Source: Candidatus Binatia bacterium (GTDB taxonomy: Bacteria > Desulfobacterota > Binatia > UBA9968 > JAJDTQ01). From it: 64,000 nt of DNA. The stretch covers positions 1,109,666-1,173,665 of the forward strand of contig OY729432.1 of NCBI GenBank assembly GCA_963422385.1, written 5' to 3'. Below are positions 6,316 through 64,000 of this stretch, in pieces. Made by a program: the position numbers and the translations under genes. Each line of letters begins with the position of its first letter. The first letter of the stretch is position 1. The notes beneath the pieces are model-generated. The model ran no database searches, was not told the origin of the DNA, and was given only the letters and a program-made list of their open reading frames with translations.

Positions 6316-6336
6316 CCGGTGTCCGGCATCTTCAAC

Positions 6337-7810: not shown

Positions 7811-7824
7811 ACTGCTCCACTGCC

Positions 7825-35951: not shown

Positions 35952-35960
35952 TTCCTCCCG

Positions 35961-36790: not shown

Positions 36791-36829
36791 CCGCACCCCT
36801 CCCCCGCGGCAGCGGGGCAGGAGGGGTGC
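36791..36829. terminator. GC-rich hairpin (10-bp perfect stem gcacccctcc/ggaggggtgc) downstream of the DGR TR on the minus-strand transcript
   Basis: A perfect inverted repeat seen in the sequence; its position suggests a terminator or a TR-RNA structural element. Confidence 0.3.
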
Positions 36830-36842
36830 GAAGCCATGTTCA

Positions 36843-38117: not shown

Positions 38118-38190
38118 GATGCACCCTGCTCCAGGCTCCGATCTTGCGCCCGGTCTCGTCCAGACATCGCGCCGCGTGCTCGTAGCGCCG

Positions 38191-38508: not shown

Positions 38509-38587
38509 GAGTCATGCCCGCTTCTCTCTATTCACCGGGGTCTGTTCTTCGGCTTTTCGCCGCACCGATTCACGCCAAATCGTCCAA

Positions 38588-38603
38588 GGGGGCTTCGCCC
38601 CCT
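38588..38603 (-). promoter_or_regulatory. GC hairpin (gggggc-ttcg-gccccc) about 38 nt downstream of the VR 3' end; a DGR homing-associated stem-loop candidate
   Basis: A 6-bp GC stem with a 4-nt loop placed where DGR VR-flanking hairpins and cruciforms occur. Confidence 0.4.
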
Positions 38604-38630
38604 GGACCCCCGAGGTAAAGAGGTAACGAT

Positions 38631-40772: not shown

Positions 40773-41025
40773 TCATCTCTCCTTGACGGCGGTCCGGCAG
40801 GGAAAAGTATAACCGCCCGTTCTCACCGCGCAAGCGCAATCCGGTGGCGAAGAACGGAAACGCCAAGCTCTTGCAGGCCCGCGAGCGCCGGGGCGGCACC
40901 ATCGGCCGCGAGCAGCCGCGCCACGTCCCCCGACGGGCTCGGAGCCGACACAATGGTCAGTTGCCACGACCAGGAATCGTGAAGATAAAGCGGCAGGTCC
41001 TGCAACAACCGCACCGGCGCCTGTG

Positions 41026-41620
41026 TCAGTGTGCCGGAGACCAGCCGCCGCGAGGGCGGCGGCTGCGGACCAGAGCGTGGTGAAGATCTTGCAAGGAGCG
41101 ATGCGGCGCAGCCTGTCGCAGCACGGCGTAAGTCCCTGCTACGTGAGGAGCCGCCATGGACGTTCCAGCGTCTTCCTTGAACGGCGCCCGTTCGCTTTCG
41201 GACCGTGGCACTGCTGAACGGATGGCAACACCCGGCGCAAGCACGTCCAGAATCGGCGCGCTGTTCGAGAACTTCGCCACTCGGGAACCCTTATCGATGG
41301 CTCCGACGCTGATGACGCCCGTGACGCAGGCCGGGCGCGATATTCCCCGCTTGTTCGATTCGTTCCCTGCTGCTGCCACCACAGCGACGTTTTGCCACGC
41401 AAGCCATCTCGTGGCCATGTCGAAGAACCGGTCCCGGCACGGAGTCGCGCGATGGGGCAGTCCCCCCAGACTCATGTTGACCGAAGCGATATCGATGCGC
41501 CGGGTCCAGGCCAACCCTATCAGCCAGTCGAGCGCTCCAAGGATGTTCGAGTTGCGCGCTCCACCCTCGCGGTTAAAGACGTTGATCGCTATCAGACCGG
41601 CCTCGGGTGCGACACCGGCG
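41026..41620 (-). pseudogene. Subtilisin-like (S8) serine protease, C-terminal fragment only
   Basis: GTSMAAPHVAG Ser motif and the GVAPEAGLIAINVF region are present. The frame is closed upstream by a stop, and the Asp and His catalytic motifs are missing. Confidence 0.55.
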
Positions 41621-49260: not shown

Positions 49261-49571
49261 AGCGAGAGGGGCAGGAGGAGCCAGGGAGACACCGGGTTCG
49301 TCAAGAGGCTCCTGTATTTGAAGCGGTCTACCAGCATGGTAGACTTCCCTTGCAGGTCATACTCGGCCAGCCGCAGTTCGGCGCCGTTGCCTTGGAGACA
49401 TTCAGCTTGGGAATCGACTCCGTGAATTGGCGGCTCATTACTGTCGACGCATTCATGATGGCGTAGGCATTGGAGCTTGTCGGTCCACCGCGAACATGCC
49501 CATGTCCAGCGCTCCCTGTGATCCATCCAGACATGGCCGGACCCGCGCCCACTAACGATCGTGCAATGAGG

Positions 49572-49589
49572 CCGGGCCTTTCGGCCCGG
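49572..49589 (+). promoter_or_regulatory. Hairpin (ccgggcc-tttc-ggcccgg) immediately upstream of the csb1 RBS
   Basis: A perfect 7-bp stem about 20 nt before the AGGAG RBS and the 49610 start. Confidence 0.3.
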
Positions 49590-49609
49590 ACCAACAGGAG
49601 AAAACCCGT

Positions 49610-50809
49610 ATGACCATTGACCTACAGACATTACAAACTGCTGTTGCCGGCACGGCCGCAGCGTTCCGGTGCGTGACCACCTATCAGCCGGCAGGAGGTC
49701 CCGGCGACAAGGTATTTCCCCCTACCTACAAAGGCGGGAAATACGCCACCGAGGAGCGAGTCGATCCCGAAACCGGCGAACGCCGACCCTGTGTTCTCCT
49801 GGATTCCGTGCAGTCGCAGGCCAACCGCATGGAACTGGCGTTGCTGGAAGCGCATCGCGCCAGCCAGGTGAGCCTTCCCTTGCTGGTCGCGCGCTTCAAT
49901 CAGGAGGAACTGCTCAAGAAGTTCACCGTGACCAGCCTTGAGGCGCCTCACCGCGTAGCGGATGCCCTTTTCCGAGACAGCCTCCTCGATGGCATGATCT
50001 TTCGCCGGTCAGAAAAGGGGCGAACACTTGACACCGCCGACGTGCGGAACGCCACCGGTCTGTTTGGCCTGTGTCCGACCGCCCTGGTATTCGGGCTGTG
50101 GGACTCGACCGGACCTCGTGGCGGTTCGGGTTGCAAGTTCCAGCGGGCGCTGGTGTCTGAAATAGTTGGGTATGATGCCGTGACGGGGAAGAAAACGTCC
50201 GGCCGCATTGACCCTGCGGAGATCATGCGTGATGCAGCTACGCTCTACGAGCGCAAGTCTGAAGGCGACAACGTGCCGCGCTGGACCTTGAAGGAAGGGG
50301 ACGGCAAGAGGAAGCTCAAGACGGGAAGGCCATCGGCAGCGAATCACGGAAACGTTGTACCCACCATCGCGGATGGCGGATTCACCCTGTCGGGAGCCCG
50401 ACAGACGACTACCTTGTCGCTCGCAGTCTTGCGACGCCTTCGTTTTCCGCTCGATGGAGCCGCCACTTCGAACGTCGCTACCGACCTTGCCGCACGCACC
50501 GCTCTGGCTGCCCTGGGTCTCGCCGCCGGGAGCCTGGCGCGCGTCGATACCGACCTTCGCTCTCGCTGCCAACTGTTCGCGGAGCAAACGCCCGCATGGG
50601 AGTTGCTCGACCACCCCGGTGAACCGCCACGGCAATTCGAACACGGTCCCGAAGACGCGCTCGAACTGTTGGATGAGGCGATCAAGGTGGCCAAAGATGC
50701 CGGCCTGCCGTGGGAGGGTGAGGTCGAATTGACTCCGTCGCCCGACTTGGTCGAACTGGTTCGGCGTAGCCAGGAAATGGCAAGCGCTTCGGAGGCGGAG
50801 CAAGGCTGA
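49610..50809 (+). CDS. cas7: Type I-G (formerly I-U) Cas7, Csb1/GSU0053 family
   Basis: YQPAGGPGDKVFPPTYKGGKYATEER and VLLDSVQSQANRMELAL are recalled signatures of the Csb1 family; the G-rich loop TGPRGGSGCKFQRAL; the gene lies directly upstream of csb2. Confidence 0.65.
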   Translation: MTIDLQTLQTAVAGTAAAFRCVTTYQPAGGPGDKVFPPTYKGGKYATEERVDPETGERRPCVLLDSVQSQANRMELALLEAHRASQVSLPLLVARFNQEELLKKFTVTSLEAPHRVADALFRDSLLDGMIFRRSEKGRTLDTADVRNATGLFGLCPTALVFGLWDSTGPRGGSGCKFQRALVSEIVGYDAVTGKKTSGRIDPAEIMRDAATLYERKSEGDNVPRWTLKEGDGKRKLKTGRPSAANHGNVVPTIADGGFTLSGARQTTTLSLAVLRRLRFPLDGAATSNVATDLAARTALAALGLAAGSLARVDTDLRSRCQLFAEQTPAWELLDHPGEPPRQFEHGPEDALELLDEAIKVAKDAGLPWEGEVELTPSPDLVELVRRSQEMASASEAEQG

Positions 50810-53169
50810 TGTTCGCTCTTGGCATCCGCTACCTGAACGGGTGGTCGATGGCCGCTGCGGACGGAGCGAGAAAGGAGAAGGCCGAATGGCCGCCGCATCC
50901 GGATCGGGTGTTCATGGCCTTGGCCGCGGCCTGGTTCGAGACCGATGCAGACGGCTCCGAAGGGGAAGCCTTGCGCTGGCTCGAAACCTTGCCGCCCCCT
51001 GAAATTGCCGCGTCGGATGCCGAGAGTCGCACCCCTGTCGTCAGCTACGTACCCGTCAACGACCCGAGCCTCGGTCGCAAGATGCCCGCAGGTCAAGACT
51101 TGGACAAGCTCAAGGATGCCGGACTGGGCCAACTGCCGGAGCATCGGTCGCCCCAGCCCCGCGGGTTTCCCGTGGCCATCCCTCGGGATCCGACGGTACA
51201 CCTGATTTGGCCGGAGGCACAGGTGGGCGTGCATCGCGAGGCCCTGGACCGGCTGGCCGCGAAGGTCACCCATGTGGGGCATTCCGCATCCTTCGTGCAA
51301 GCGTGGCTCGAAACCAGTCCATCGCCGCCCGCGTGGGTCCCGGGGACCGGGGTCGCGCGTCAGCGCCTGCGCGTGACGAGCCCTGGTCGCTTGAGGACTC
51401 TGGAAGGGCGCATGAACCGCGAAGCGTGGATCGCCTACCATGACCTTCGCCACGAAATCGAGCAGGCCGAGGCGGACCTCAAGGCGATGAAGCGCCCGCC
51501 AAGGGCGCCTTGGGAGGCATTCCCGGACGTGATTTTGCTGGCCGGCGAAACCCGAACCAGGCGGCATCCCGAGTACGCTGACGCAAAAGCCACCGACGAT
51601 GCTGTGGCCGCGGCCAACCTCGTCAACAGCCTGGTTGACGAAGCGGGGATTGCTGCGGTGCGGACACTGATCGCCACAGTCAGTGAAAGTGGTGAGCCGA
51701 TCCTGGTCAGCGCACATGCATTCGAGCGGCAGGGGCTCAATGCCATTCCCGCTGCCTTGACGAGATTGCTGAGCGAACGACTCCGCATCCCGCGCGAGAC
51801 TACCGTTGTGCAGACGAACGTTGTCTCCCACACGGGTGCAGACGGTTATGGTCGCCTTGCGCGACAAGCCTGTTTCGACGGCCGCATCGAAGCAGGTCGA
51901 GAGTATCTTATGGTGGACGATTTCGTTGGCCAAGGCGGGACCTTGGCCAATCTGCGCGGCTGGATGGAAAAACAAGGCGGTCAGGTCGTCGGAGCCGTTG
52001 CCCTGACCGGCAAATCGTACTCCGCCAAGTTGAACCCTTCAAAGGAGCAACTCCATGAACTCGGACAAAAGCACGGATCAGACTTTGAAAAGTGGTGGCA
52101 GGCGCACTTCGGCCACGCCTTCGATTGCCTTACTCAATCGGAAGCTCGGTACCTCGCCCGCTCCCCGGATGTTGACACCATCCGAAATCGCCTTGCTGCG
52201 GCAAAGCAAGGTGGAAGTGGATCGAGTAACAGGCGAAGTCCTGGCGAGCAAAGACAATACATAAAGGAAATGAAGACACGTCTAAGAGACACCTTCCCCG
52301 ATGGTGAACCCGTAAGCTTGCGCCCTGTACCGGGCCGCTGGCAGGGGTACACAGAGGCATCGAAAGATGGTGACCCTGAAGCACCGGGCCCGGTTTTCGC
52401 CCCGCGGCTCATTGTCCTGGACCTCAAGGGCAGGCGGGTGTCTTTGCCGGCCACGCTCAAGCTCACCGCGGCCCTGCGTGGGCTGTTGATGCGAGAGTGT
52501 GCCGACCAGCCCCCACCCGAGTGGTTCAGCGGCCATCGCACGGACGGCAAGCCAAGCGCCAACCCGCATCTCGCCCTGATACCGCTTCCCTTTGTCGGCG
52601 CCGAGCATGCAGACGGTCGCGTCATGGGTTTGGGTCTCGTACTGCCTGCGGATTTGGACTCATTGGCGGCCGGCCATTGTCTCGAACCGTTCTTGCACGA
52701 GTCGGCTACCGGCTTGCCACGCGAACATCCGTTGTTCGACGGCCAGTGGTTCGAGTGCGCTATCGAGTTGGAAACCCGCGAACGACCGCCGAGGAACCTC
52801 GACCCGAGAACCTGGACGCGGAGATCCTGCGTTTGGGCAAGCGTGACTCCGATCGTCCTGAACCGACACTTCGACGGCAAGGACAAGTGGGCGAAGGCCG
52901 CCGACAGCGTGAAAGACGCCTGCCGGCATATCGGCCTGCCGCGCCCCCGAGAAGTGCTGCTCCACCCGATCTCGCTGGTTGAAGGCGCACCGCACGCCAG
53001 GGACTACCCGCAACTGACCCGCAAGAACGCCGGTGGCGCGCGCAGCCACAGTCACGCGGCGATCATTTTCGACGAACCCGTGCGCGGGCCGGTAATTGTC
53101 GGGGCCGGGCGTTTCCGGGGGTATGGGTTGTGCCGGCCGATGGACGGGGGTGGCCAAGACCGTGGTTGA
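50809..53169 (+). CDS. Type I-G Cas5-Cas6 fusion (Csb2/GSU0054 family) with an inserted phosphoribosyltransferase-like domain
   Basis: N-terminal EWPPHPDRVFMALAAAW...VSYVPVNDP (Cas5 region of Csb2). C-terminal GAGRFRGYGLCRP glycine-rich loop (Cas6-like). At 786 aa it is far longer than the ~500 aa usual for Csb2, and the middle segment carries YLMVDDFVGQGGTL, a canonical type-I PRTase PRPP-binding motif. Confidence 0.65.
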   Translation: MFALGIRYLNGWSMAAADGARKEKAEWPPHPDRVFMALAAAWFETDADGSEGEALRWLETLPPPEIAASDAESRTPVVSYVPVNDPSLGRKMPAGQDLDKLKDAGLGQLPEHRSPQPRGFPVAIPRDPTVHLIWPEAQVGVHREALDRLAAKVTHVGHSASFVQAWLETSPSPPAWVPGTGVARQRLRVTSPGRLRTLEGRMNREAWIAYHDLRHEIEQAEADLKAMKRPPRAPWEAFPDVILLAGETRTRRHPEYADAKATDDAVAAANLVNSLVDEAGIAAVRTLIATVSESGEPILVSAHAFERQGLNAIPAALTRLLSERLRIPRETTVVQTNVVSHTGADGYGRLARQACFDGRIEAGREYLMVDDFVGQGGTLANLRGWMEKQGGQVVGAVALTGKSYSAKLNPSKEQLHELGQKHGSDFEKWWQAHFGHAFDCLTQSEARYLARSPDVDTIRNRLAAAKQGGSGSSNRRSPGEQRQYIKEMKTRLRDTFPDGEPVSLRPVPGRWQGYTEASKDGDPEAPGPVFAPRLIVLDLKGRRVSLPATLKLTAALRGLLMRECADQPPPEWFSGHRTDGKPSANPHLALIPLPFVGAEHADGRVMGLGLVLPADLDSLAAGHCLEPFLHESATGLPREHPLFDGQWFECAIELETRERPPRNLDPRTWTRRSCVWASVTPIVLNRHFDGKDKWAKAADSVKDACRHIGLPRPREVLLHPISLVEGAPHARDYPQLTRKNAGGARSHSHAAIIFDEPVRGPVIVGAGRFRGYGLCRPMDGGGQDRG

Positions 53170-54934
53170 ATCGAACGGCACGGCACGGGAACACGTGCTA
53201 CTGACAGTGCTCGGCACGAACCCGAAGAAGGCATGCTATCGCTTCAAGGACAGGCAGGCGGAGGCCATCCTCGCCCCGATCGCCCTGTATGACTTGTCGC
53301 CGGAAGCAGACCGGCCTGACCGGGTATTGGCACTCTGCACACCAGAGGCAAAGCAGAACAGTTTGCCGCTCCTTGAAGATGGGCTATGCGGTCGGTGCGT
53401 TGTGAAACCGGTTGACATTCCTGCCGGCAACTCTCAGGCGGACGTCCATACTTTCTTGGCTACGGTTGCCGCCGCCATACCGGAGAGAGCCGATCTCACC
53501 GTAGACGTCACCCACGGGTTCCGGCATTTCTCGTTCCTCACCTACATCGCCGTTCTCTACGTATCGGCGCTTCGCGGCATACGGGTACGCGGCGCCTACT
53601 ACGGTATGTTGAATCACAATGAGGCGAGTCCGTTTCTCGATCTGCGTCCGCTTCTGGAACTGCCCCGCTGGCTTCACGCGCTGCAGGTGTTGAACGATAC
53701 GGGGAGCGCCGTGTCCATTGCCAGTATCCTCGATGAGGGTTCCCAAGGACGGGGACCGCGGCTAATCGCAAGGCGTCTATCGCAGTGTCTATCGCAGTGT
53801 CTATCGCAGTTCTCGGAAGCGTACTTGTCCGGTCTCCCGCTCGAACTCGGCCGGCACGCGGCTGAGTTCACGCAGCAGTCGATCAAGCCGTTGAAGAGAC
53901 TGCTCCAGAACGATCACGCGTTACCCCTCGGGGGCGAGTTGGCCGATCAAATAGCAGAGTTCTTCAAGCCGCTGGCCCTGGGATCACAGGCTTCAGGGAG
54001 CGGGTGGAAGCAAAAGGTCGCGCTCTCGAAGGAAGAACTGGAACGTCAGGCCGCAGTTATCGACAACCTGCTGCGCCATGGAAGCGTCACAGCCGCATTG
54101 GGTCTCATGAACGAGTGGACCGTGTCGTGGGTAGTCCGGGTCCGCGACGGGCGCAACAGCGAATGGCTCGACTATCACAATGTCCGTCGCGGCGCCGCGA
54201 GCCTTCTCGGCGCCATGAGGGCCATCGGTAACGACCCTGAACTGCATTGTCTCTTGACGGATGAGCAGCGTTCGCTCGGAGTGTTCTGGGGAGAACTGTG
54301 TGACCTTCGCAACGGATACCACCACCACGGCATGCGCCCGCAGGTTCTGGTCGGCGACGCGCAAACCGGGAAAAAACTTCAGGGTGTGCGGGAATACTGG
54401 ACGACAACGCTCCGCTCATGCCCCGAGAATTTCGGGTTCTCGCTCGGCGATACGTCTGGAGGCCGGGTTCTGGTCAGTCCCATCGGAAAGCGCCCTGGCG
54501 TGCTGTACAGTGCGTTGCGCGCCTGCAGGGACGAAAACGGTAACAGCAGGTTGTCGCGATGCCTCGTCATCTGCTCGCCCGAAACCCGAGGAAAGATCGA
54601 CGAGGCGGTCGAGAACGCGGGGTACAAAGGGCATGTTGAGCCGCTTGTAATCAAAGACGCTTTCGGCGGCGGCTCCGGGGAAATCAGGAGCGTGGTGGCG
54701 AGGGGGCGAAAACATCTCATCGGTGCCGAGGCCGTCTTCGTGAACGTCACCGGCGGCACGACGCTCATGGGCCTTGCTGCCGAAGACCTTGCCAACGCGG
54801 GACGTGAACTTGCCTGCCCGGTGCGCCGGTTCGGCCTGATCGACCGCCGGCCGCCGAGAGAGCAGGAGGCCGACCCCTACCGGGCCGGCGAACCATTCTG
54901 GCTGGACCCGGGAGAAGACAAGAATGCCGACTGA
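53162..54934 (+). CDS. csx1: Csx1/Csm6-family CARF-HEPN protein (DxTHG family)
   Basis: N-terminal CARF strand LLTVLGTN and DVTHGFRHFS (DxTHG signature); C-terminal HEPN-like LCDLRNGYHHHG (R-x4-H). A GTG start at 53162 or 53195 is more likely than the listed ATG 53096, which overlaps csb2. Confidence 0.75.
   Translation: MVESNGTAREHVLLTVLGTNPKKACYRFKDRQAEAILAPIALYDLSPEADRPDRVLALCTPEAKQNSLPLLEDGLCGRCVVKPVDIPAGNSQADVHTFLATVAAAIPERADLTVDVTHGFRHFSFLTYIAVLYVSALRGIRVRGAYYGMLNHNEASPFLDLRPLLELPRWLHALQVLNDTGSAVSIASILDEGSQGRGPRLIARRLSQCLSQCLSQFSEAYLSGLPLELGRHAAEFTQQSIKPLKRLLQNDHALPLGGELADQIAEFFKPLALGSQASGSGWKQKVALSKEELERQAAVIDNLLRHGSVTAALGLMNEWTVSWVVRVRDGRNSEWLDYHNVRRGAASLLGAMRAIGNDPELHCLLTDEQRSLGVFWGELCDLRNGYHHHGMRPQVLVGDAQTGKKLQGVREYWTTTLRSCPENFGFSLGDTSGGRVLVSPIGKRPGVLYSALRACRDENGNSRLSRCLVICSPETRGKIDEAVENAGYKGHVEPLVIKDAFGGGSGEIRSVVARGRKHLIGAEAVFVNVTGGTTLMGLAAEDLANAGRELACPVRRFGLIDRRPPREQEADPYRAGEPFWLDPGEDKNAD
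53766..53801 (+). repeat. In-frame 12-bp x3 tandem repeat inside csx1, encoding (LSQC)x3
   Basis: gtctatcgcagt repeated three times. Confidence 0.5.
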
Positions 54935-56132
54935 AATCGAGGCAACCTATCGTGTCGTCACGCCGATGTTCTGCGCAGGCGCCACTCCCTCTCACGCCGA
55001 AGTTCGCGCGCCCTCCTTCAAAGGCGTGCTGCGCTTCTGGTGGCGGGCGCTGGCATGGTCGCGGCTGAAGGGTGACCTGGAAGCCATCAAGAAAGAGGAA
55101 GACAGGCTCTTTGGAAGCGCGAGCGGCGGTGGTTCGAAGGTGTCGATGCGTGTGGAGATGGACGCGCGTCAGAAAACAGTCCCGCAGAACACAGTACTTA
55201 CTGTTTCCGAAAAAAACCGCACCCCTGTCGGGGAGGGCGCCCGCTATCTCGGCTACGGCGTCATGGAAGCGTTCACGAGCAAGCCGAAGAATACGCGGGC
55301 AGGGCAACTCACGCGTTCGTGTCTCCATGCCCCTTTCGACTTCACTGCTCAAATGCGAGGTCGTAACCTGACTGAGGCGGAATCATCATCACTTAAGGAC
55401 GCTCTGGTCGCTCTGGGAACGTTCGGCAGTGTGGGAGCCAAAAACCGCAGGGGGTACGGCTCGTTGGTCCTTCAGTCTTTGCTTGTTGGTGGAGGCAACC
55501 AGTACCGTCAGCCACAGGACATGACCGGGCTGCATGACGCAATCAAGAAGCTCCAGCCCGATAGTGGGGGGCAAACGGCTCAAACCGGTTTGCCCGAGTT
55601 CACCGCATTGTCCGTGGAAGCGCGTCACCTACTGCTGTCAAGCGACAAGAAGGAACCCATGAATCTCCTGGATCTCGTTGGCCGCGAGTTGATGAGGTAT
55701 CGTAGCTGGGGCCACAACGGAAAGGTACTCGGTCAACCATCAGAGCGTAATTTCAAGGATGATCACGACCTGATGAAGAAGTCGGCTGGAGAGCGTAAGA
55801 CACATCCTCGCCGCATCGCCTTCGGCCTTCCTCACAACTACGGCAAGAGACCGGACCAACAGGTTGGCCCGTATGACAAGAAAACGGACCGTCGCGCCAG
55901 TCCGCTGTTTGTCCACATTCACGAATGTGGTGGTACACCGGTCGCCCTACTGTCGTTCCTCCCGGCCCGATTTCTGCGCAAAGATGGATCGGACGTTTCC
56001 GTCGGGCAAACCCGAATCGCTCACCGTCCAGAGGACGAACTCTACCGCCCGATTCACGACTTTCTTGACCGCCTGCTCGATGAAAACAAGCGGAAGGAAC
56101 AATTTACGGATGTTCAGGAGGTGCAACCGTGA
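54924..56132 (+). CDS. cmr1: Type III-B Cmr1 (Cas7-group RAMP)
   Basis: TPMFCAGA ... RAPSFKGVLRFWWRA, the Cmr1 N-terminal RAMP signature; the start overlaps the csx1 stop. Confidence 0.85.
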   Translation: MPTEIEATYRVVTPMFCAGATPSHAEVRAPSFKGVLRFWWRALAWSRLKGDLEAIKKEEDRLFGSASGGGSKVSMRVEMDARQKTVPQNTVLTVSEKNRTPVGEGARYLGYGVMEAFTSKPKNTRAGQLTRSCLHAPFDFTAQMRGRNLTEAESSSLKDALVALGTFGSVGAKNRRGYGSLVLQSLLVGGGNQYRQPQDMTGLHDAIKKLQPDSGGQTAQTGLPEFTALSVEARHLLLSSDKKEPMNLLDLVGRELMRYRSWGHNGKVLGQPSERNFKDDHDLMKKSAGERKTHPRRIAFGLPHNYGKRPDQQVGPYDKKTDRRASPLFVHIHECGGTPVALLSFLPARFLRKDGSDVSVGQTRIAHRPEDELYRPIHDFLDRLLDENKRKEQFTDVQEVQP

Positions 56133-58081: not shown

Positions 58082-59241
58082 TTGGCGTCCAGCTCCAGCC
58101 GGTTGACACTTGGTTCTTTCGCGATGGGACGCCGTTCACCAAGGAGAGCGCGCCACAGGAGAACGTCAGCAGCCTGTTCCCACCGCATCCGCCGACGGTC
58201 GTGGGCGCACTCCGGGCCGCATTAGCATCAGCTCGCGGCAACGGTTGGACTGGCCAAGGGGAATGGCCGCCGGGAATTTGCGACGTGCTCGGCGACGGCC
58301 CCGAGAACCTGGGGCTTCTTTCCTTTGTCGGCCCGGTCCTTCTCCGAGATAACGCGCCGCTTTTTCGCGCGCCGCGTCATCTGCTGGGTTCGACCGACGA
58401 TGCGTGCTGGCGCCCGCGCATATTCCTCCGGCCCGGCCCTCCGGTGATGTGCGATCTGGACGACGCGACGCAGATCCCGGAGGTGTCCGGCACTACAGGA
58501 GAAATCGAAAAGCTCAAGACCGGCGATGCCTGTTGGCTGACACGGGCCGGCATGAGCGCGGTGCTTCACGGTCGTCGTCCGTGTCCCGACGACATGATAC
58601 CGGACTGCTGTCTGTGGTCCGACGAATCGCGCGTCGGGCTGGAACGCGACAACACGAAGCGCACGGCCAGGGAAGGTATGCTCTACAGTAACCGACACAT
58701 TCGTCCGCTGCGGGGAGTTTCACTCGGCGTGCAGATTGCCGGCCTGCCTCAAGGCTGGACGCCGCCCTTTGGAGAGTTGATACCACTGGGCGGCGAGAGC
58801 CGACTTGCCGAGTGTCAGGCGTGGAACGCGGATTTGGCTCTTGAGACGGACATGGAGAAAATCAAGGCAACCGGGAAGGCCACAGTCATGGCTCTTTCAC
58901 CGATGGAACTGGCGGAGGAAATCTGTCGCGGCGCCAAACCGATAGACGATCTGGGCGGCGCCCGTGTCGTATCGGCCTGCCTGGACCGGCCGCTACGAAT
59001 CGGAGGGTGGAATTCCCTGGCACGGCGTCCGTTGCCGCTGCGATCCGTGTTGCCATCGGGCAGTGTCCTCTTTTGCGAGGTCGACGACCCGGAACGCTTC
59101 GCGGAGAGCATGGCAGCCGGCGATGAGTTGCCACGCATGACGTCAGGCAATGCGCTGGCACGCATCGGGTCGCGCCGTGAATGGGGTTTTGGCCTTGTCG
59201 CTGTCGGCAGTTGGCCGGATGAACAGGAGGAAAATTCATGA
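58078..59241 (+). CDS. cmr3: Type III-B Cmr3 (Cas5 group)
   Basis: LQPVDTWFFRDGTPF N-terminal motif; ATGA overlap with the cmr2 stop. Confidence 0.85.
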   Translation: MIGVQLQPVDTWFFRDGTPFTKESAPQENVSSLFPPHPPTVVGALRAALASARGNGWTGQGEWPPGICDVLGDGPENLGLLSFVGPVLLRDNAPLFRAPRHLLGSTDDACWRPRIFLRPGPPVMCDLDDATQIPEVSGTTGEIEKLKTGDACWLTRAGMSAVLHGRRPCPDDMIPDCCLWSDESRVGLERDNTKRTAREGMLYSNRHIRPLRGVSLGVQIAGLPQGWTPPFGELIPLGGESRLAECQAWNADLALETDMEKIKATGKATVMALSPMELAEEICRGAKPIDDLGGARVVSACLDRPLRIGGWNSLARRPLPLRSVLPSGSVLFCEVDDPERFAESMAAGDELPRMTSGNALARIGSRREWGFGLVAVGSWPDEQEENS

Positions 59242-60071
59242 GAACAGCGATGCTCGGTCTCTTGGCCGAGACGCCCATCCATCCCGGCTCCGGGCGCGGC
59301 ATGGGTGTGGTGGACCTGCCCGTGGCGCGAGAAGCTGCCACCGACTACCCCGTGCTCGTCGGATCGAGCTTGAAGGGCGCATTGCGGGACAAGACGGGCA
59401 AGAATGCGGACGAAAATGCCGCGAACGAGAGGTTCGGGAAACCGGAGCAGGCGGGCGACCTGCTCGTCTCGGACGCGCGTCTGTTGTTGCTGCCCGTGCG
59501 TAGTCTGACCGGCGCGTACCGCTGGGCCACATGCCCGCATCTCGTCGAACGGTACGTTCGCGATTGCGCCCGGGCGGGCAGGCGAACGGAATCTCTGGCA
59601 CCTCCCGATGTGAAGGAGGGGGAAGTTCTGACGTCCGGTTCAGGCGATCTGTTCCTCGAAGAAAGACAATTCCCTATCTGTGGCGAACCTGCATCCGAGT
59701 TGGCGCGCGCCATCGCGCCGTTGCTGCTCCACCAGGAAACACGGGAACGGCTGCATGGACAGATTGCCGTGCTGTGTGACGACGACTTCGCCTGGTTTGT
59801 CCGCTATGGCCTTTCCATTCAGGCGCGCAACCATCTGGAAGACGAGACCAAAAAGAGCAAGAACCTGTGGTACGAGGAAACTCTGCCTCCCGATACGCTG
59901 CTTTACTCTCTCGTCGCGGGCCGAAACGACGCGGCTCTCGACACCCTGGATTCCCTCTTCCCCGACAGCGATCCCTACCTGCAAGCCGGCGGCAACGAGA
60001 CCGTGGGCCAGGGCTGGTTCGCTGTCAGGGTCCTTAAGCCCGTGGCACCGGATGCGGAGGAATCGCAATGA
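59238..60071 (+). CDS. cmr4: Type III-B Cmr4 (Cas7 backbone subunit)
   Basis: ETPIHPGSGRGMGVVDLPVAREAATDYPVLVGSSLKGALR is the canonical Cmr4 start. Confidence 0.9.
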   Translation: MRTAMLGLLAETPIHPGSGRGMGVVDLPVAREAATDYPVLVGSSLKGALRDKTGKNADENAANERFGKPEQAGDLLVSDARLLLLPVRSLTGAYRWATCPHLVERYVRDCARAGRRTESLAPPDVKEGEVLTSGSGDLFLEERQFPICGEPASELARAIAPLLLHQETRERLHGQIAVLCDDDFAWFVRYGLSIQARNHLEDETKKSKNLWYEETLPPDTLLYSLVAGRNDAALDTLDSLFPDSDPYLQAGGNETVGQGWFAVRVLKPVAPDAEESQ

Positions 60072-60478
60072 GGACCATCGAGCAGGAACGTGCGGCAAAC
60101 GCCCTTGGACGTGTAAACAAATTGAGTAGTGAGACCAACGACTTCAAAAAGCGATACAGAAGCTATGTCGACCGCCTCGGACCGACCATCGTGCTGAACG
60201 GTCTGGGCCAGGCACTGGCTACCGAGCGCGCTACGGCCGGCTCAGAACCGAAGGAACCGGACGAAAAGGCGCACCAGATGCTTTATGACAGCTTGCAGAG
60301 CTGGCTTTGCCGCGACGATGGCGTTTATCCGCCCGGCAACGATCTCTTGCAGGTTCTCATGGAGAAGGACGAAGTGCTTTACCTCCGCGCCCAGGCCGAA
60401 GCGCTGGCATGGCTTGAGTGGCACAAGAAATGCTGCCGAGCCTCGTTCCCGAAAAGCGATCCAGGAGACAAGCCGTGA
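60068..60478 (+). CDS. cmr5: Type III-B Cmr5 (Cas11 small subunit)
   Basis: A 136-aa helical protein positioned between cmr4 and cmr6 with coupled ATGA/GTGA overlaps. Confidence 0.7.
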   Translation: MRTIEQERAANALGRVNKLSSETNDFKKRYRSYVDRLGPTIVLNGLGQALATERATAGSEPKEPDEKAHQMLYDSLQSWLCRDDGVYPPGNDLLQVLMEKDEVLYLRAQAEALAWLEWHKKCCRASFPKSDPGDKP

Positions 60479-61617
60479 CTCTGCCGCTTTACAAGGCCGT
60501 GGCTGACCGACCGCCAAGCCGGGAGGTTACGGGACATGCGGGCCTGTGGTTCGACAAGTTCTGCAACCAGTGGCGCCATGAGAAGTCCACCTGGACCATG
60601 AAGAGCCGCGACGAGCACAACCCCAAGCTCCAATGGATCAAGACCCTGACGACGGGAAAAGTCGGTGCGGCGCCACACCTCCAGGAGACCGCGCTGCGCC
60701 TTGCGGCATTGGTCGAGAGCCGTAAAGGACACGTTGAAGTGTTCACCACGACGTCACGCTTCGTCACGGGCCTGGGCCGCAGCCATCCCATCGAGAACGG
60801 CTTTGCCTGGCATCCGACACTGGGAACACCGTATGTGCCGGGAAGCTCGGTGAAGGGTCTGGTTCGTTCCTGGGCCAAGCTGGAGGCTGACCCGCGTCCG
60901 GACAAGCAGCTTCGGGAACGCCTGCTTGGAACGCCTGATAAAGCGGGTAGCCTGTGTTTCCTCGATGCCATCCCTATTGCCCCCGTGCAGCTCGAAGCAG
61001 ACGTGATGACGCCTCACTACGCAGGCTGGAGTGTGGATGACCCGCCGGGAGATTGGCGGTCGCCGACGCCCATCCCCTTCCTGACCACGGCCGCGGATAC
61101 CCCCTTCCTGTTCGGTGTGACTCCGGTCCGTGACATTTCAGACGCTGACCTGCGTGCCGTCCAGGAATGGCTGCGCGCAGCCCTCGCGTGGGGCGGAGCT
61201 GGCTCCAAGACGGCGATTGGATACGGCCGCTTCGAGAGCAACGAGCGGGAAACGACCAGCCTGACGGACAGGATACGGAAGCGCAAAGAAGCGCGCGAGA
61301 CGTTGATGCAGGCCGAGAGGACGGCAAGGGAGCGTGCAGAGCGGTTGGCGGCTCTCAGCCCTACGGAGCGCGAGATCGAGGAATTGCTCAATACGCGTCG
61401 GGACAGAAACGTGCCTGAAATCACCGCCATCATTCAGGCAGTCAAGAGCGGTCGCTGGACTGGCGACGCCAAAATCGAAGCCGCACGATGTCTGAAGGAC
61501 CGGATGACCAGAGCGAAGAAGTGGAAAGAAACCAGCCGGAAGAAACAGCCTGCCAAGGACCGGGATTACCAGGACACGTTGACCGTCATACGCTGGCTGC
61601 GGGGCGAAGCGTCATAG
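60475..61617 (+). CDS. cmr6: Type III-B Cmr6 (Cas7 group)
   Basis: GLGRSHPIENGFAWHPTLGTPYVPGSSVKGLVRSW, the RAMP G-rich loop; a GTG start at 60475 overlapping the cmr5 stop (alternatively the GTG at 60418). Confidence 0.85.
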   Translation: MTLPLYKAVADRPPSREVTGHAGLWFDKFCNQWRHEKSTWTMKSRDEHNPKLQWIKTLTTGKVGAAPHLQETALRLAALVESRKGHVEVFTTTSRFVTGLGRSHPIENGFAWHPTLGTPYVPGSSVKGLVRSWAKLEADPRPDKQLRERLLGTPDKAGSLCFLDAIPIAPVQLEADVMTPHYAGWSVDDPPGDWRSPTPIPFLTTAADTPFLFGVTPVRDISDADLRAVQEWLRAALAWGGAGSKTAIGYGRFESNERETTSLTDRIRKRKEARETLMQAERTARERAERLAALSPTEREIEELLNTRRDRNVPEITAIIQAVKSGRWTGDAKIEAARCLKDRMTRAKKWKETSRKKQPAKDRDYQDTLTVIRWLRGEAS

Positions 61618-61640
61618 ACGACCGCCCCGCGTGCTGAACA

Positions 61641-64000
61641 ATGTCCCTGACTAACAAAGTGAGTCCCGTGACTGACCTGACCGCGACAGACTTCGCCGAC
61701 TTCTTTGCGGGGTCTTGGGGCTATCAGCCCTTTGCATGGCAGCAGACATTGGCGGAGAGGGTGCTGGAACATCCAGAGTCTCCCTGGCCCGAGGCGATCG
61801 CTCTACCGACGGCTTCCGGAAAGACCGCTTGCCTGGATATAGCGGTGTTCGCGTTGGCGGTCCAAGCGTCGCGGATGGAGCGAAAGCAGACCATCACCGC
61901 GCCTCGCCGCATCTTCTTCGTAGTGGACCGGCGCGTGATCGTGGACGAGGCATACGAGCGCGCCAAGCGGTTGGCAAAGAAACTGGATGAAGCCGATGCG
62001 GGCATCGTCAAGAGGGTCGCGGACAATCTTCGACAGATCGCCCACGGCGAACCGACGAACTCAGATCGCGAACGACCGCTGGCTGCCCATTTGTTGCGCG
62101 GCGGCATGTACCGCTCCGAAGCCTGGGCGCGGAATCCGCTACAACCGACGGTGGTGGCATCCACCGTTGATCAGATCGGCTCTCGTCTGCTGTTCCGCGC
62201 CTATGGACGCGGCTTCGGCACTTGGCCGATCCATGCCGGACTCATCGCCAACGACAGCCTCATCCTCCTCGACGAGGCGCATTGCGCTCAGCCGTTTCTT
62301 CAGACCTTGCGGGCGGTTCGACGTTTCCGGACCTGGGGGCACAATCCGCTCAAGCGATGCTTCTTTCCCGTGGTCATGTCCGCCACGCCACCGCTAGGGA
62401 TGACGGACGTATTCGAGGACCAGTCCGACGAACGGCTCGATCCGCGCCATCCGCTTGGCCGACGCCAATCGGCGCACAAACCCGCGGTCCTCAAGGCAGT
62501 CCACAACGCCAAGGGACCAAAAGCCACACATGTATTGGCTCGGGCTCTAGCCAATGCAGGAGTGGAACTGGTCAACGAACAACGTCGAGCGATCGTGATA
62601 TTCGCCAACCGCGTGGCGACGGCGCGGCAGACTCACCGGCTGTTGACGGCCGATCACGGAGACCGCGTGGTCCTGCTCACCGGCCGTATGCGCCCCGTGG
62701 ACAAGGACGCCATCGTTCAACAGCGTTTGAAGCTCCTTTACTCGAATCAGTCCGGGCAACGCGCTCTGGAAGAGCCGCTCATGGTCGTGGCTACTCAAAC
62801 CCTGGAAGTCGGGGCCGACCTCGACTTCGATGGTCTCGTCACCGAGTGCGCAAGTCTCGACGCCCTGCGTCAACGCTTCGGCCGCTTGAACCGCATGGGG
62901 CGCCCCATAGAGGCGCGAGCGGTGATCCTTGTCCGTGGGGATCAGGCCGGAGCAACGGCGGACGAGCCGGCGGCGACGAAAGTGAAGACGGGAGAGAACG
63001 AGGACCCTGTTTACGGTCGAGCCTTGACCCGGACGTGGACGTGGCTCAATACGCACAACGCCGAGACGGGCGAGGTCGACTTCGGAATCTCATCCCTCGG
63101 CCCGCAATTGCCGGAGGGCGATTCCCTGGCAGCACTAAACGCCCCGACCCGTGACGCTGCGGTGATGCTTCCCGCCCACCTCGATTGCTGGGCGCAGACG
63201 GCCCCAGCCCCATGCCCTTCCCCCGACGTCGGCCTGTTCCTGCATGGTCCGCGCGAAAGCGTGGCTGACGTGCAGGTCTGTTGGCGCGCGGACCTGGATC
63301 TGATCGAGGAGAAGGAAACAGTGCTGGAGCTGCTGTCCTTGTGCCCACCGAGCAGCAACGAGACGCTGCCGGTGCCGATCGGCGTATTCCGGCGTTGGCT
63401 GGCCGGGGGAGCCATCGAAGACGACAGCGCCGATGTGGAGGGAATCGGCACAGAAGACGACAGCAGCGGGAGGAGTGCGCCGGTAGTCCGGTGGCGCGGG
63501 GCAGGGACCGACGGGGACGACATCACGGATGACCCCAAGCTGGTTCGGCCCGGCGACGTGATCGTGATTCCGACCCGCCATCCGGGACAAGCGCGCCGAC
63601 TCGGCGACGTGCCGCAGGACGCTGTCCTCGACGTAGGTGACGAGGCCTATCGCCGCGCCCGCGCCAAGCCCATCCTTAGGCTGAGTCCGGCGCTCGTGAA
63701 CGATTGGCCGGACTCCATCAATGCAAAGGCCGCTGCATCCGGACTGTTGAAGAATCTGGAGCAGAGGTACGAGGATGATCCGCACGAGCTCGGCGATGCC
63801 TTGCGGGAGTTGCTGACGGAGGTGGCCGACTCGGAACCGATCTCGGAACGCTGGGCCTGGTTGCCGCAAGCGGCGAAAGAGCTGGCGGACGAGTACCGAG
63901 GCGCCGTGTTGGACCGCGCCTATCGGGTTGTCGGTAAAGAAAGCATCGTCCTCGTCGGGCATCGCCGCCTGCAACACCTCGCCCACGAAGCCGACAGCTT
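61641..64000 (+). CDS. cas3: Cas3-like superfamily-2 helicase with the helicase domain first (type I-G style); the ORF continues past the window end
   Basis: My own translation from ATG 61641 is open through 64000 and is absent from the ORF track because it has no stop. FADFFAGSWGYQPFAWQQTLAERVL; motif I LPTASGKTAC; motif II LLDEAHC; ATQTLEVGADLDFD; motif VI LRQRFGRLNRMGR. Confidence 0.7.
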   Translation, partial: MSLTNKVSPVTDLTATDFADFFAGSWGYQPFAWQQTLAERVLEHPESPWPEAIALPTASGKTACLDIAVFALAVQASRMERKQTITAPRRIFFVVDRRVIVDEAYERAKRLAKKLDEADAGIVKRVADNLRQIAHGEPTNSDRERPLAAHLLRGGMYRSEAWARNPLQPTVVASTVDQIGSRLLFRAYGRGFGTWPIHAGLIANDSLILLDEAHCAQPFLQTLRAVRRFRTWGHNPLKRCFFPVVMSATPPLGMTDVFEDQSDERLDPRHPLGRRQSAHKPAVLKAVHNAKGPKATHVLARALANAGVELVNEQRRAIVIFANRVATARQTHRLLTADHGDRVVLLTGRMRPVDKDAIVQQRLKLLYSNQSGQRALEEPLMVVATQTLEVGADLDFDGLVTECASLDALRQRFGRLNRMGRPIEARAVILVRGDQAGATADEPAATKVKTGENEDPVYGRALTRTWTWLNTHNAETGEVDFGISSLGPQLPEGDSLAALNAPTRDAAVMLPAHLDCWAQTAPAPCPSPDVGLFLHGPRESVADVQVCWRADLDLIEEKETVLELLSLCPPSSNETLPVPIGVFRRWLAGGAIEDDSADVEGIGTEDDSSGRSAPVVRWRGAGTDGDDITDDPKLVRPGDVIVIPTRHPGQARRLGDVPQDAVLDVGDEAYRRARAKPILRLSPALVNDWPDSINAKAAASGLLKNLEQRYEDDPHELGDALRELLTEVADSEPISERWAWLPQAAKELADEYRGAVLDRAYRVVGKESIVLVGHRRLQHLAHEADS

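Follow-up and report, generated by a model that had tools for sequence, protein, structure and literature searches.

In the 3′ part of the 64-kb window (the whole stretch of DNA that was analysed), a DNA-targeting type I-G CRISPR-Cas system has a complete RNA-targeting type III-B module, accompanied by a Csx1 nuclease, set between two of its genes. Ten genes on the plus strand follow one another in the order csb1/cas7g, csb2 (cas5-cas6), a gene for a Csx1-like CARF-HEPN protein, cmr1 to cmr6 and the type I-G cas3 (Table 1), and they are best explained as one composite CRISPR-Cas operon, of which the window holds the 5′ two-thirds. It is likely that this is a type I-G variant with a nested III-B module and Csx1, in which the crRNAs of one array serve both effectors. 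An earlier sequence-only reading had assigned the identities and order of these genes, and profile matches bear out all ten, including those of Csb1 to Cas_GSU0053 and TIGR02570 and of Csb2 to TIGR02165. The locus is, as that reading proposed, one I-G operon interrupted by the III-B module and Csx1, rather than a pair of complete loci next to each other.

Table 1. Features of the composite locus, in window coordinates.
Feature	Coordinates	Strand	Evidence or position
Solitary degenerate CRISPR-repeat-like element	49563..49597	-	13-46 nt upstream of csb1 ATG, antisense to csb1
csb1 (Cas7g), type I-G backbone subunit, 399 aa	49610..50809	+	Pfam Cas_GSU0053 3.5e-53
csb2	50809..53169	+	TIGR02165 4.5e-88
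csb2, N-terminal Cas5-like part, about aa 1-235	50809..51513	+	First TIGR02165 stretch
csb2, inserted phosphoribosyltransferase (PRT)-fold domain, about aa 236-515	51514..52353	+	Motif, structure model
csb2, C-terminal Cas6-like part, about aa 516-786	52354..53169	+	Second TIGR02165 stretch
csx1-like CARF-HEPN ancillary RNase, 590 aa from GTG start	53162..54934	+	DxTHG motif; TIGR02549 2.1e-6
cmr1	54924..56132	+	TIGR01894 61.4 bits (cut-off 28.65); Pfam RAMPs
cmr2/cas10, 650 aa	56129..58081	+	Cmr2_N and Cas10-Cmr2_palm2; TIGR02577 2.4e-44
cmr3	58078..59241	+	Pfam Cas_Cmr3 6.3e-59, full length
cmr4, Cas7-like RNA-cleaving backbone subunit	59238..60071	+	TIGR02580 3.8e-52, 177.9 bits (cut-off 87)
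cmr5, Cas11-like small subunit	60068..60478	+	Pfam Cas_Cmr5 1.2e-28; TIGR01881
cmr6	60475..61617	+	TIGR01898 1.5e-37, 129.7 bits (cut-off 51.1)
cas3g, type I-G helicase-nuclease, first 786 codons	61641..64000, running off window end	+	TIGR02621

Organization of the locus

Neighboring genes overlap by 1-11 nt throughout, with the exception of a 23-nt gap between cmr6 and cas3g. The csb1/csb2 junction is TGATG, a 1-nt overlap, and the overlaps at csb2/csx1 and csx1/cmr1 are 8 and 11 nt, respectively. The ATGA or GTGA that the sequence-only reading had noted at every cmr junction is present as a 4-nt overlap at all five (the GTG start of cmr6, for instance, overlaps the cmr5 stop as GTGA), and each is preceded 8-10 nt upstream by a GGAGG-like ribosome-binding site. 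A consensus scan revealed no promoter of sigma-70 type, and terminator-like sites occur at chance level (13 found versus 12.2 expected), so the operon structure is read from the gene overlaps only; the genes of the locus are probably co-transcribed.

Upstream of csb1 lie genes unrelated to cas (AAA-ATPase_like/PDDEXK_9, tag and catalase). A PADLOC search of the 42 upstream ORFs gave no strong match to Cas6, Cas1 or Cas2 among the best 25 of 62 families, and the sole Cas1-named match among these, "Cas1_IIIb" (1.8e-25), probably reflects an RT-Cas1 model matching a reverse transcriptase. No tandem array is present in the whole 64-kb window. The solitary element next to csb1, which reads GGTCCGGGCCGAAAGGCCCGGCCTCATTGCACG on the minus strand, is laid out like the 36-nt repeats of related loci, with a 7-bp GC-rich stem followed by CCTCATTG; it is a degenerate match, since a strict 14-mer search allowing 2 mismatches misses it. 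Solo repeats or two-repeat mini-arrays also occur upstream of csb1 in the related loci L006, L087, L011, L070, L012/13, L021 and L030/31.

Type I-G components and the genes past the window edge

Csb1 matches TIGR02570 at 4.6e-21 (75.5 bits, cut-off 38) and is 76-92% identical to its counterparts in L001, L002, L003, L006 and L087. The truncated cas3g covers positions 1-611 of the 854 in TIGR02621 (4.4e-165, 551.8 bits, cut-off 400). The Cas3 HD domain, which the sequence-only reading proposed to look for further along the contig, is indeed missing from the in-window part, whereas a 1012-aa protein (P0121) that is 100% identical over all 786 in-window residues has a Cas3_HD match, which places a C-terminal HD domain just past the window edge.

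The order cas3-cas8u2-cas7-cas5/6, against which the locus had been measured as canonical, proves to be that of a different I-G variant. In relatives of the locus the normal order is csb1-csb2-cas3g-NF049934 protein ("cas8u1")-cas4/cas1-cas2-array, and the same order is given as csb1-csb2-cas3-cas8u1 in a myxobacterial survey (PMC11237760). Among loci whose sequence extends 3′ of csb2, cas3g comes directly next in 37, comprising all 35 from metagenomes and 2 from genomes. Because the variant normally runs csb1-csb2-cas3g, the only unusual feature here is the module between csb2 and cas3g.

The reported lack of cas8, adaptation genes and array holds for the window itself but is an effect of the window edge. 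The related locus L005, which is collinear with window positions 51628-64000 at 91% DNA identity, continues after cas3g with a gene for a 310-aa NF049934 protein, cas4/cas1, cas2 and 47 copies of a 36-nt repeat, GATTCCGAGGCAAGCTTGCCTCGGCCTCATTGAAGC. The same NF049934-cas4/cas1-cas2-array run, with at least 37 repeats, follows cas3g in L006. By this comparison, the present genome would be expected to have its NF049934 gene, its adaptation genes and an array just downstream of the window.

The type III-B module and its CARF-HEPN protein

Cmr2/Cas10 (152 bits against TIGR02577, cut-off 79.4) has no HD domain and opens directly with Cmr2_N; its cyclase GGDD motif is intact, with YAGGDDVLAML and LLLADGDRLG in the translation. 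Cmr3 scores 72 bits against NCBIfam TIGR01888, under the cut-off of 100.4. Near its N terminus, Cmr4 carries an Asp within GVVDLPVARE, which is probably catalytic, as in other members of the family.

The Csx1-like protein scores 70.1 bits against TIGR02221, under the cut-off of 76.25, and contains an RNGYHH motif in which R383, N384 and H388 are invariant in 23 homologues. Its AlphaFold2 model (pLDDT 82) finds its best Foldseek matches in Marinitoga Csx1-Crn2 (8Y6Z, 1.7e-12), S. islandicus Csx1 and Csm6, and the family profile, run against PDB sequences, matches 8Y75/8Y7G at 6.6e-8. The best structural and profile match is thus the Marinitoga sp. Csx1-Crn2 fusion (PDB 8Y6Z, 8Y7G), with which the protein shares both the HEPN R-N-x3-H motif and a layout of N-terminal DxTHG-type CARF, helical region, HEPN and extra C-terminal domain. 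Sequence identity to that fusion reaches only 12-17%, and differing domain orientations hold the TM-scores down to about 0.3. The extra C-terminal domain (aa 435-580), which carries NVTGGTT, looks like a second CARF/Rossmann domain and not like the Crn2 fold.

Conservation of the nested arrangement

The nesting of the III-B module in the I-G operon is genuine and conserved. Three other assemblies have the same order: L005; L003, at 83-86% DNA identity; and L087, on a 7.05-Mb contig, whose proteins are considerably diverged (Csx1 58%, Cas3g 66%, Csb1 81% and Cmr6 55% identical). The csb2/cas3g junction also accepts other type III cargo, as in L006, where I-G genes 89-92% identical to those of the window flank a Csm-type module (cas10/csm1, csm2, csm3, csm4 and a TIGR02710 CARF protein). 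Elsewhere the Csx1-Cmr module is divergently transcribed from the I-G genes (L004) or directly upstream of them (L089), so that it is I-G-adjacent in five of the six contexts examined; in the sixth, L088, it stands alone, with no I-G genes within 10 kb. Only a minority of the I-G loci of this variant are nested. Since un-nested I-G loci are common (the 37 above) and the Csx1-Cmr module can stand alone, nesting is not required for function. The absence of a stand-alone cas6, observed for the window in the sequence-only reading, extends to the flanks of four related loci.

A proposed division of labor and its alternatives

With no stand-alone cas6 found, the natural reading is that crRNA maturation for both effectors depends on Csb2, and processing by its Cas6 domain is plausible by analogy with two characterized systems. 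The cmr1-6 genes of Haliangium ochraceum were made to work in E. coli by supplying csb2 as their Cas6 homologue, and type III interference was obtained there with a minimal array (Steens et al., bioRxiv 10.1101/2023.06.23.546230). Similarly, cleavage by the Csb2 of Thioalkalivibrio sulfidiphilus falls 4 nt 3′ of the 7-bp stem in a 36-nt repeat, leaving an 8-nt handle (PMC9638904).

Most likely, a single array of 36-nt repeats, placed just downstream of the window on the model of the relatives, would supply transcripts that the Cas6-like domain of Csb2 cuts at a point 4 nt 3′ of the repeat's 7-bp hairpin; judging from T. sulfidiphilus Csb2 and the repeats of related loci, the 8-nt 5′ handle would be AUUGAAGC. 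The same crRNAs would be loaded into two effectors. One would be an I-G Cascade of Csb1, Csb2 and the NF049934 protein that recruits Cas3g for DNA degradation, and the other a Cmr complex that binds complementary transcripts, which Cmr4 would cleave. The HD-less, GGDD-intact Cas10 would then make cyclic oligoadenylate and so activate the Csx1-like RNase, whose extra CARF-like domain might, more speculatively, bind or degrade the signal. New spacers would come from the I-G Cas4/Cas1-Cas2 proteins. As a case of two CRISPR systems with common guide RNAs, the locus is tidy and largely expected.

The III-B module could instead be merely lodged in the I-G operon, for example through defence-island shuffling, with the systems independent and Cmr using a Cas6 and array elsewhere. 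Such independence would fit the solitary Csx1-Cmr module of L088 and the lack of a type III insert in most I-G loci of this variant; moreover, only the window of the source genome is in view, and a stand-alone cas6 or III-B-specific array could lie elsewhere in the ~3.95-Mb genome. It appears unlikely, however, given that the nested order survives the deep divergence of Csx1 and Cmr6 in L087, that start and stop codons overlap at csb2/csx1 and csx1/cmr1, and that the module is usually adjacent to I-G genes and lacks its own cas6, cas1 and cas2 in every context examined. The repeat tail of the relatives also yields a handle of the kind used by III-B complexes, and in H. ochraceum Csb2 demonstrably serves Cmr.

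A different possibility, and one that we regard as quite improbable, is that the I-G system is being dismantled, with csb1 and csb2 kept mainly as accessories for type III crRNA processing or binding and DNA interference by Cas3g weak or lost. The insertion does leave csb1-csb2 apart from both cas3g and the gene of the putative large subunit, canonical Cas8g1 (Csx17) and Cas8g2 are absent, and the alternative module at the same junction in L006 raises the prospect of type III being the primary effector. Yet the I-G genes are all intact and strongly conserved, with Csb1, Csb2 and Cas3g 66-92% identical across nested and un-nested loci; cas3g is stop-free over its 786 codons and its full-length identical counterpart has the HD domain; the position of the large subunit is taken, just as it is in un-nested loci, by an NF049934 protein; and the insert-bearing relatives L005 and L006 retain cas4/cas1, cas2 and long arrays. 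That the arrangement is an assembly artefact or a chimera of two separate loci is extremely improbable: although the related records include several metagenome assemblies and L005, at 5x coverage, has frameshifts, the order recurs in the window and in L003, L005 and L087, four records independent of one another that include contigs of 3.97 and 7.05 Mb, and coding overlaps seamlessly at both junctions.

Comparison with known systems

In the paired type I and III-B systems of Pyrococcus furiosus and Marinomonas mediterranea, crRNAs are processed by a stand-alone Cas6 or Cas6f. That enzyme is not a Cas5-Cas6 fusion doubling as a Cascade subunit, whereas Csb2 of the present locus is. A common theme is the reliance of III-B on crRNAs from co-resident type I arrays or repeats (P. 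furiosus Cst/Cmr, PMC4666368; M. mediterranea I-F/III-B, PMC5576922), and P. furiosus has a locus at which Cmr and type I modules go together (PMC4666368). The modules described there are adjacent, whereas that of the window is intercalated in one translationally coupled gene string.

The H. ochraceum III-B system is alike in having Cmr1-6 without their own Cas6 and an I-G Cas5-Cas6 fusion, Csb2, that processes crRNA; its ancillary effectors are SAVED-CHAT and PCaspase, in contrast to the Csx1-like CARF-HEPN protein found here. The T. sulfidiphilus I-G system shares the Csb1/Cas7 backbone, the Csb2 fusion and the C-terminal HD domain of Cas3, and is unlike the present locus in having Cas8g/Csx17 and the order cas3-cas8g-cas7-csb2; that genome also contains a type III-B locus, reported as a CRISPR system separate from I-G (PMC9638904).

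Loci that combine I-G with type III modules have been recorded before. The myxobacterial survey lists "Hybrid(I-G,III-B)" and "Hybrid(I-G,III-D)" loci, one Nannocystis hybrid entry spanning about 21.6 kb, and an array under a III-B entry that carries a repeat of I-G type (PMC11237760). The myxobacterial I-G systems resemble the present variant in gene order and in their 36-nt "G-type" repeat, which ends TTGAAGC. The hybrids appear there as typing labels in a data table only, and the accessible text gives no description of their gene order, insertion point or type III cargo swap (PMC11237760).

An inserted domain in Csb2

The first TIGR02165 stretch in Csb2 aligns aa 1-279 with profile positions 1-273 of 492, and the Cas5-like part is highly conserved in an alignment of 29 homologues. 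In the Cas6-like part H749 is invariant, H747 is nearly so, and a glycine-rich motif, GAGRFRGYG, is conserved as well. A histidine of this part is probably catalytic, on the analogy of H503 in the Csb2 of T. sulfidiphilus (PMC9638904). That protein was modelled as two linker-joined domains with the catalytic His503 near the C terminus (PMC9638904), and where it has a linker, the Csb2 of the window has a highly conserved PRT-fold domain of ~280 aa between its Cas5 and Cas6 halves. The insert contains a PRPP-loop motif, LMVDDFVGQGGT, and gives weak Pribosyltran/APRT sequence matches. It is modelled by AlphaFold2 at pLDDT 80-94, and its Foldseek matches in the PDB, among those listed and including the top ones, are all to type I PRT-fold proteins (ComF, OPRT, APRT, XPRT, PurR and ShosT). 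Canonical Csb2 proteins (~530 aa) lack the insert, as do those encoded by 28 out of 35 csb1-csb2-cas3g loci from metagenomes, a count made up of L036 and 27 csb2 matches of 1.56-1.7 kb, compared with 2.36 kb for csb2 in the window. Although a side finding, this domain is the least expected item of the locus.

A type III-B module between csb2 and cas3g

The gene string claimed for the plus strand by a sequence-only reading is borne out by ORF listing and profile searches, in which nearly all matches pass their curated cut-offs. Two models fall short, TIGR02221 (CARF protein) and the NCBIfam model for Cmr3. Csb1 and Csb2 pass the type I-G models for their families, and the set of Cmr1, Cas10/Cmr2, Cmr3, Cmr4, Cmr5 and Cmr6 is complete. 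The tight junctions are likewise present, with overlaps of 1 nt at csb1/csb2, 8 nt at csb2/csx1 and 11 nt at csx1/cmr1, followed by five GTGA/ATGA overlaps within cmr1-6, all of them preceded by a GGAGG-like site. The sole intergenic gap in the string, 23 nt, precedes cas3g. No promoters were returned by a consensus promoter and terminator scan of the window, and terminator-like sites occur at chance level; the string is probably co-transcribed as one operon. The genes upstream of csb1 (AAA-ATPase_like/PDDEXK_9, tag and catalase) are not CRISPR-related.

Features of the window, with the profile matches that support them (bits against curated cut-off)
Feature	Position	Strand	Match or description
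PADLOC candidate defence family PDC-S01 ORF	2772-3638	-	1.3e-39; first ~160 of ~440 profile positions only
Partial AAA-ATPase_like/PDDEXK_9 paralogue	~11860-12657 (about 11.2-12.7 kb)	+	
Cluster with reverse transcriptase and caspase protein	34275-41514	-	DUF4384 protein, OmpA-like protein, reverse transcriptase, caspase protein, subtilase fragment
Reverse transcriptase	36846-38501	-	552 aa; RVT_1 match
Caspase + PG-binding + FGE-sulfatase protein	38631-40772	-	
AAA-ATPase_like + PDDEXK_9 gene	47695-49260	+	immediately upstream of csb1
Degenerate solitary CRISPR-repeat-like element	49563-49597	-	13-46 nt upstream of csb1 start, antisense
csb1/cas7g	49610-50809	+	TIGR02570, 75.5 against 38; Pfam Cas_GSU0053, 3.5e-53
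csb2	50809-53169	+	786 aa; TIGR02165, 296.6 against 45, in two stretches around the insert
PRT-fold insert in csb2	51514-52353	+	codons ~236-515; ~280 aa
CARF protein (csx1)	53162-54934	+	DxTHG model, 27.7 against 21; TIGR02221, 70.1 against 76.25 (just short)
12-nt x3 tandem repeat in csx1	53775-53810	+	perfect, in frame
cmr1	54924-56132	+	402 aa; TIGR01894, above cut-off
cmr2/cas10	56129-58081	+	650 aa; TIGR02577, above cut-off
cmr3	58078-59241	+	Pfam Cas_Cmr3, 200.7 against 21, 6.3e-59; NCBIfam, 72 against 100.4 (below)
cmr4	59238-60071	+	TIGR02580, above cut-off
cmr5	60068-60478	+	TIGR01881, above cut-off
cmr6	60475-61617	+	TIGR01898, above cut-off
cas3g	61641 to beyond 64000	+	786 codons, no stop, exceeds window end; TIGR02621, 551.8 against 400

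The order cas3-cas8u2-cas7-cas5/6, taken as canonical in the sequence-only reading, is that of another I-G variant, and the kin of the window run csb1-csb2-cas3g. In a scan of genomes and another of metagenomes, with all loci annotated by tblastn, cas3g immediately follows csb1-csb2 in 37 loci, which continue, where the contig suffices, with an NF049934 gene, cas4/cas1 and cas2. PMC11237760 gives the myxobacterial order as csb1-csb2, then cas3-cas8u1, with 36-nt “G-type” repeats that end in TTGAAGC; there, cas8u1 is the name of the NF049934 protein, which NCBIfam calls “type I-G CRISPR-associated protein, Cas3-extension family”. Set against its own kin, the sole oddity of the window is the 8.5-kb csx1-cmr1-6 block between csb2 and cas3g.

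Beyond the window edge

Homology search returned P0121, a 1012-aa Cas3g homologue on a 3.95-Mb contig that is 100% identical to the Cas3g fragment over all 786 residues and carries a Cas3_HD match, so the window, which shows the helicase part of Cas3g, very probably just ends before the C-terminal HD nuclease. Through a member of the 90% cluster of P0121 we found L005, a related locus that is collinear with window positions 51628-64000 (DNA 91% identical). There, cas3g is followed on its 3′ side by a 310-aa NF049934 protein, a cas4/cas1 fusion, cas2 and an array in which the 36-nt repeat GATTCCGAGGCAAGCTTGCCTCGGCCTCATTGAAGC occurs 47 times, and two further related loci (L006 and L002) have the same downstream module. 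A genome scan of species representatives yielded relatives only, at 66-68% identity, and neither exact-sequence look-ups with Cmr3, Cmr4, Cmr5 and P0121 nor a scan of metagenome contigs for exact 30-mers gave a match.

Within the 64-kb window itself, Tandem Repeats Finder detects no tandem array, and profile searches detect no large subunit of the Cas8g1/Csx17 or Cas8g2/GSU0052 type. The claim that no array or adaptation genes are in view holds for the window. As L005, L006 and L002 carry the missing genes after cas3g, their absence is almost certainly an edge effect, and the content beyond position 64000 would resemble that of L005, L006 and L003.

Conservation of the nesting and exchange of cassettes

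The CARF (Csx1) family is large and conserved, with proteins of ~580-600 aa (55-80% identical) in more than 120 clusters, and genomic contexts were obtained for six of its members. The same nested order is found in L005, L003 and L087 (the last on a 7.05-Mb contig), whose Csx1 proteins are 89, 80 and 58% identical to that of the window. Elsewhere, csx1-cmr1-6 lies divergent from cas4/1-cas2-array-cas3g-NF049934-csb1-csb2 (L004, Csx1 67% identical), directly upstream of csb1-csb2-cas3g (L089, 56%) or alone (L088, 59%). The partnership of the module with this type I-G variant is therefore recurrent and its position variable. Nesting of type III-B genes in the I-G operon is real and conserved.

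The csb2/cas3g junction also accommodates other content. In L006, the most telling of these loci, whose csb1, csb2 and cas3g are 82-92% identical to those of the window and thus as close as those of L003 or closer, the junction (5041-9978) holds a reduced Csm-type cassette consisting of cas10/csm1, csm2, csm3, csm4 and a TIGR02710 CARF protein, with no csm5. Its cas10/csm1 encodes 489 aa against the 753 positions of TIGR02578, the best stretch covering profile positions 480-753 only. The junction is empty in L001 and L002, whose I-G genes are 66-79% identical to those of the window, a divergence like that of L087. Type III cassettes thus come, go or replace one another at the csb2/cas3g junction, and the swap at one junction in I-G loci that are ~90% identical illustrates module exchange.

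On a smaller scale, the Cmr1 of L003 (11757-12767, 337 aa) is 44% identical to that of the window, whereas all flanking genes are 77-89% identical, a pattern that points to recombination within the module affecting only cmr1.

The type III-B effector and Csx1

Cas10/Cmr2 of the window has no HD domain, as the protein opens directly with Cmr2_N, and it keeps the cyclase GGDD (‘YAGGDDVLAML’), a motif predicted to be competent for signaling. Cmr4 keeps its N-terminal Asp, presumably the residue expected for target-RNA cleavage in this family.

The CARF protein combines a DxTHG-type CARF domain with a HEPN R-x4-6-H motif, RNGYHH, of a predicted RNase, in which R383, N384 and H388 are invariant in 23 family members. 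Its AlphaFold2 model (mean pLDDT 82) has as its best Foldseek match the Marinitoga Csx1-Crn2 fusion 8Y6Z (E 1.7e-12), followed, to E 1e-4, by S. islandicus and P. furiosus Csx1 and several Csm6 proteins; by sequence, the family profile matches 8Y75 at 6.6e-8. These motifs and fold matches make the earlier label “csx1 (CARF-HEPN)” a fair name, and the protein would be the receiver of cOA signaling. Its C-terminal α/β domain (aa 435-580) bears a CARF-like NVTGGTT and could, speculatively, bind a second ligand or act as a ring nuclease.

Within csx1, the 12-nt unit GTCTATCGCAGT is repeated three times and codes for LSQC-LSQC-LSQ, which lies in the sole low-confidence internal loop of the model (aa 213-220). 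As the family consensus is shorter there, the repeat looks like a recent slippage expansion.

crRNA processing and a probable shared array

The C-terminal Cas6 domain of T. sulfidiphilus Csb2 cuts a 36-nt repeat 4 nt 3′ of a 7-bp hairpin, leaving an 8-nt handle (PMC9638904). Repeats of the window’s relatives fit this scheme exactly, with the stem CCGAGGC/GCCTCGG, CCTC and then ATTGAAGC. The repeat tail of the related loci, AUUGAAGC, is a tag of the kind that III-B complexes accept. One III-B entry in the myxobacterial dataset of PMC11237760 lists a repeat of the relatives’ type. The presence of one array and no stand-alone cas6 in L005 and L006, the repeat tail and the H. ochraceum precedent below point indirectly to shared crRNAs. 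Among the related loci examined, there is no stand-alone cas6 and no cas1 or cas2 besides those of type I-G.

The repeat fit, the type of tag and the III-B entry with a repeat of this type make a model with one array, one Csb2 and two effectors the best supported. A single array would be processed by a single enzyme, Csb2, and its crRNAs would be shared between an I-G Cascade that acts on DNA with Cas3g and a Cmr complex that acts on transcripts, with cOA switching on Csx1; a single Cas4/Cas1-Cas2 module would serve adaptation.

Such borrowing has precedents. Type III-B systems with no cas6, cas1 or cas2 that rely on crRNAs from a type I neighbor are established, as in P. furiosus (PMC4666368) and M. 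mediterranea (PMC5576922); Csb2 has been used experimentally in the service of Cmr from H. ochraceum (bioRxiv 10.1101/2023.06.23.546230); and a table in PMC11237760 already contains loci typed as “Hybrid(I-G,III-B)” and “Hybrid(I-G,III-D)”. III-B borrowing of type I Cas6, arrays and adaptation genes is well known, and the window locus overturns no current understanding. We found no published description of the exact nesting point, of its conservation to ~58% identity or of a cassette swap there.

Upstream of csb1 is a degenerate repeat-like element, found by eye and by 8-mer search, with a 7-bp GC stem followed by CCTCATTG... in its layout. With 2 mismatches allowed, the repeat tail GGCCTCATTGAAGC matches the window at chance level only, inside genes. 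L006, L087, L011, L070, L012/13, L021 and L030/31 likewise have a comparable solo repeat or a mini-array of two repeats ahead of csb1, and mini-arrays are reported in 46% of I-G loci (Shmakov et al.). The element may have a crRNA-like regulatory role or be what is left of an array.

A PRT-fold insert in Csb2

Csb2 of the window is longer than the 492 positions of TIGR02165 and the 530 aa of the short homologue in L089, the extra length being an insert between the Cas5-like and Cas6-like halves that is absent from canonical Csb2. The insert is extremely conserved, contains an intact PRPP-loop-like LMVDDFVGQGGT (MVDDFVGQGGT) and, at pLDDT 80-94, is the best-modeled part of the protein; the Cas5 and Cas6 parts are of low confidence (pLDDT <60) in the AlphaFold2 model. 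Its structural matches, among those listed, are of the type I PRT fold only (ComF, OPRT, APRT, XPRT, PurR and the Shosta toxin ShosT). Reading the extra length as the product of a gene fusion or a mis-called ORF is rejected, given more than 120 clusters of ~785-aa homologues (66-88% identical) and the quality of the modeled insert. The short form of Csb2 is found in 28 of the 35 metagenome loci with cas3g directly after csb2.

Free-standing homologues of the insert (240-265 aa, 50-67% identical; L015 and L041-L086) occur commonly in metagenomes, for the most part with unrelated neighbors. A consistent, defense-related neighborhood for them is rejected on the evidence of L068, L052, L058, L084 and L072, where the neighbors are unrelated and include sugar-modification genes, a helicase and gyrA. 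The only I-G-adjacent case is L015 (9995-17737), with a PRT-like gene directly upstream of a divergent cas3g-cas8g2(TIGR04106)-csb1-csb2, and because the domain is free-standing beside I-G genes there, it may be a recurrent I-G accessory. A full-text literature search for Csb2 together with phosphoribosyltransferase returned nothing relevant. That the insert binds a nucleotide or PRPP in I-G variants without Cas8g is a testable idea and offers a concrete lead on these variants.

Significance of the probable two-effector operon

The locus provides a clean natural pair of DNA- and RNA-targeting systems in one translationally coupled operon of ~20 kb, the probable sole crRNA-processing enzyme of which doubles as a Cascade subunit. 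Such an operon would lend itself to work on the division of crRNAs between type I and type III complexes and on type III as a back-up for type I when escape mutants arise.

More ambitiously, the csb2/cas3g junction of this I-G lineage could be a dedicated docking site for type III modules in an obligately integrated two-effector system with a single, PRT-regulated Csb2, a proposal that we consider rather unlikely. If it were true, the exchanged cassettes would be Cmr with Csx1 (the window, L003, L005 and L087) and Csm with the TIGR02710 CARF protein (L006), translational coupling would set the stoichiometry of the effectors, and all crRNA would pass through one Csb2. The PRT-fold, PRPP- or nucleotide-binding domain would then add an undescribed regulatory or enzymatic layer, in which, for example, nucleotide sensing gates crRNA processing or Cascade function, and would replace functions of the missing Cas8g.

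Other genes in the window

In the distant relative L002 (4176-5717; DNA 70% identical), too, an AAA-ATPase_like + PDDEXK_9 gene immediately precedes csb1, and a partial paralogue lies elsewhere in the window. This recurrence may be a coincidence, or the gene may be I-G-associated or mobile. One of 42 ORFs upstream of the locus (window 1-49700) matches PADLOC Csa3 models (5e-13) and is not among the ORFs re-scanned at 41-49 kb; it could be a cOA-responsive regulator. Near the start of the window, an ORF on the minus strand partially matches the candidate defense family PDC-S01.

The minus-strand cluster that contains the reverse transcriptase and the caspase protein is ~11 kb upstream of the CRISPR locus, and GC skew falls to -0.22 at 38-40 kb. 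Matches to PADLOC ‘RT’ (6.7e-49) and RT_UG17 (1.2e-28) in a pooled ORF scan very likely come from this reverse transcriptase, and the cluster may be a DRT-like defense island.
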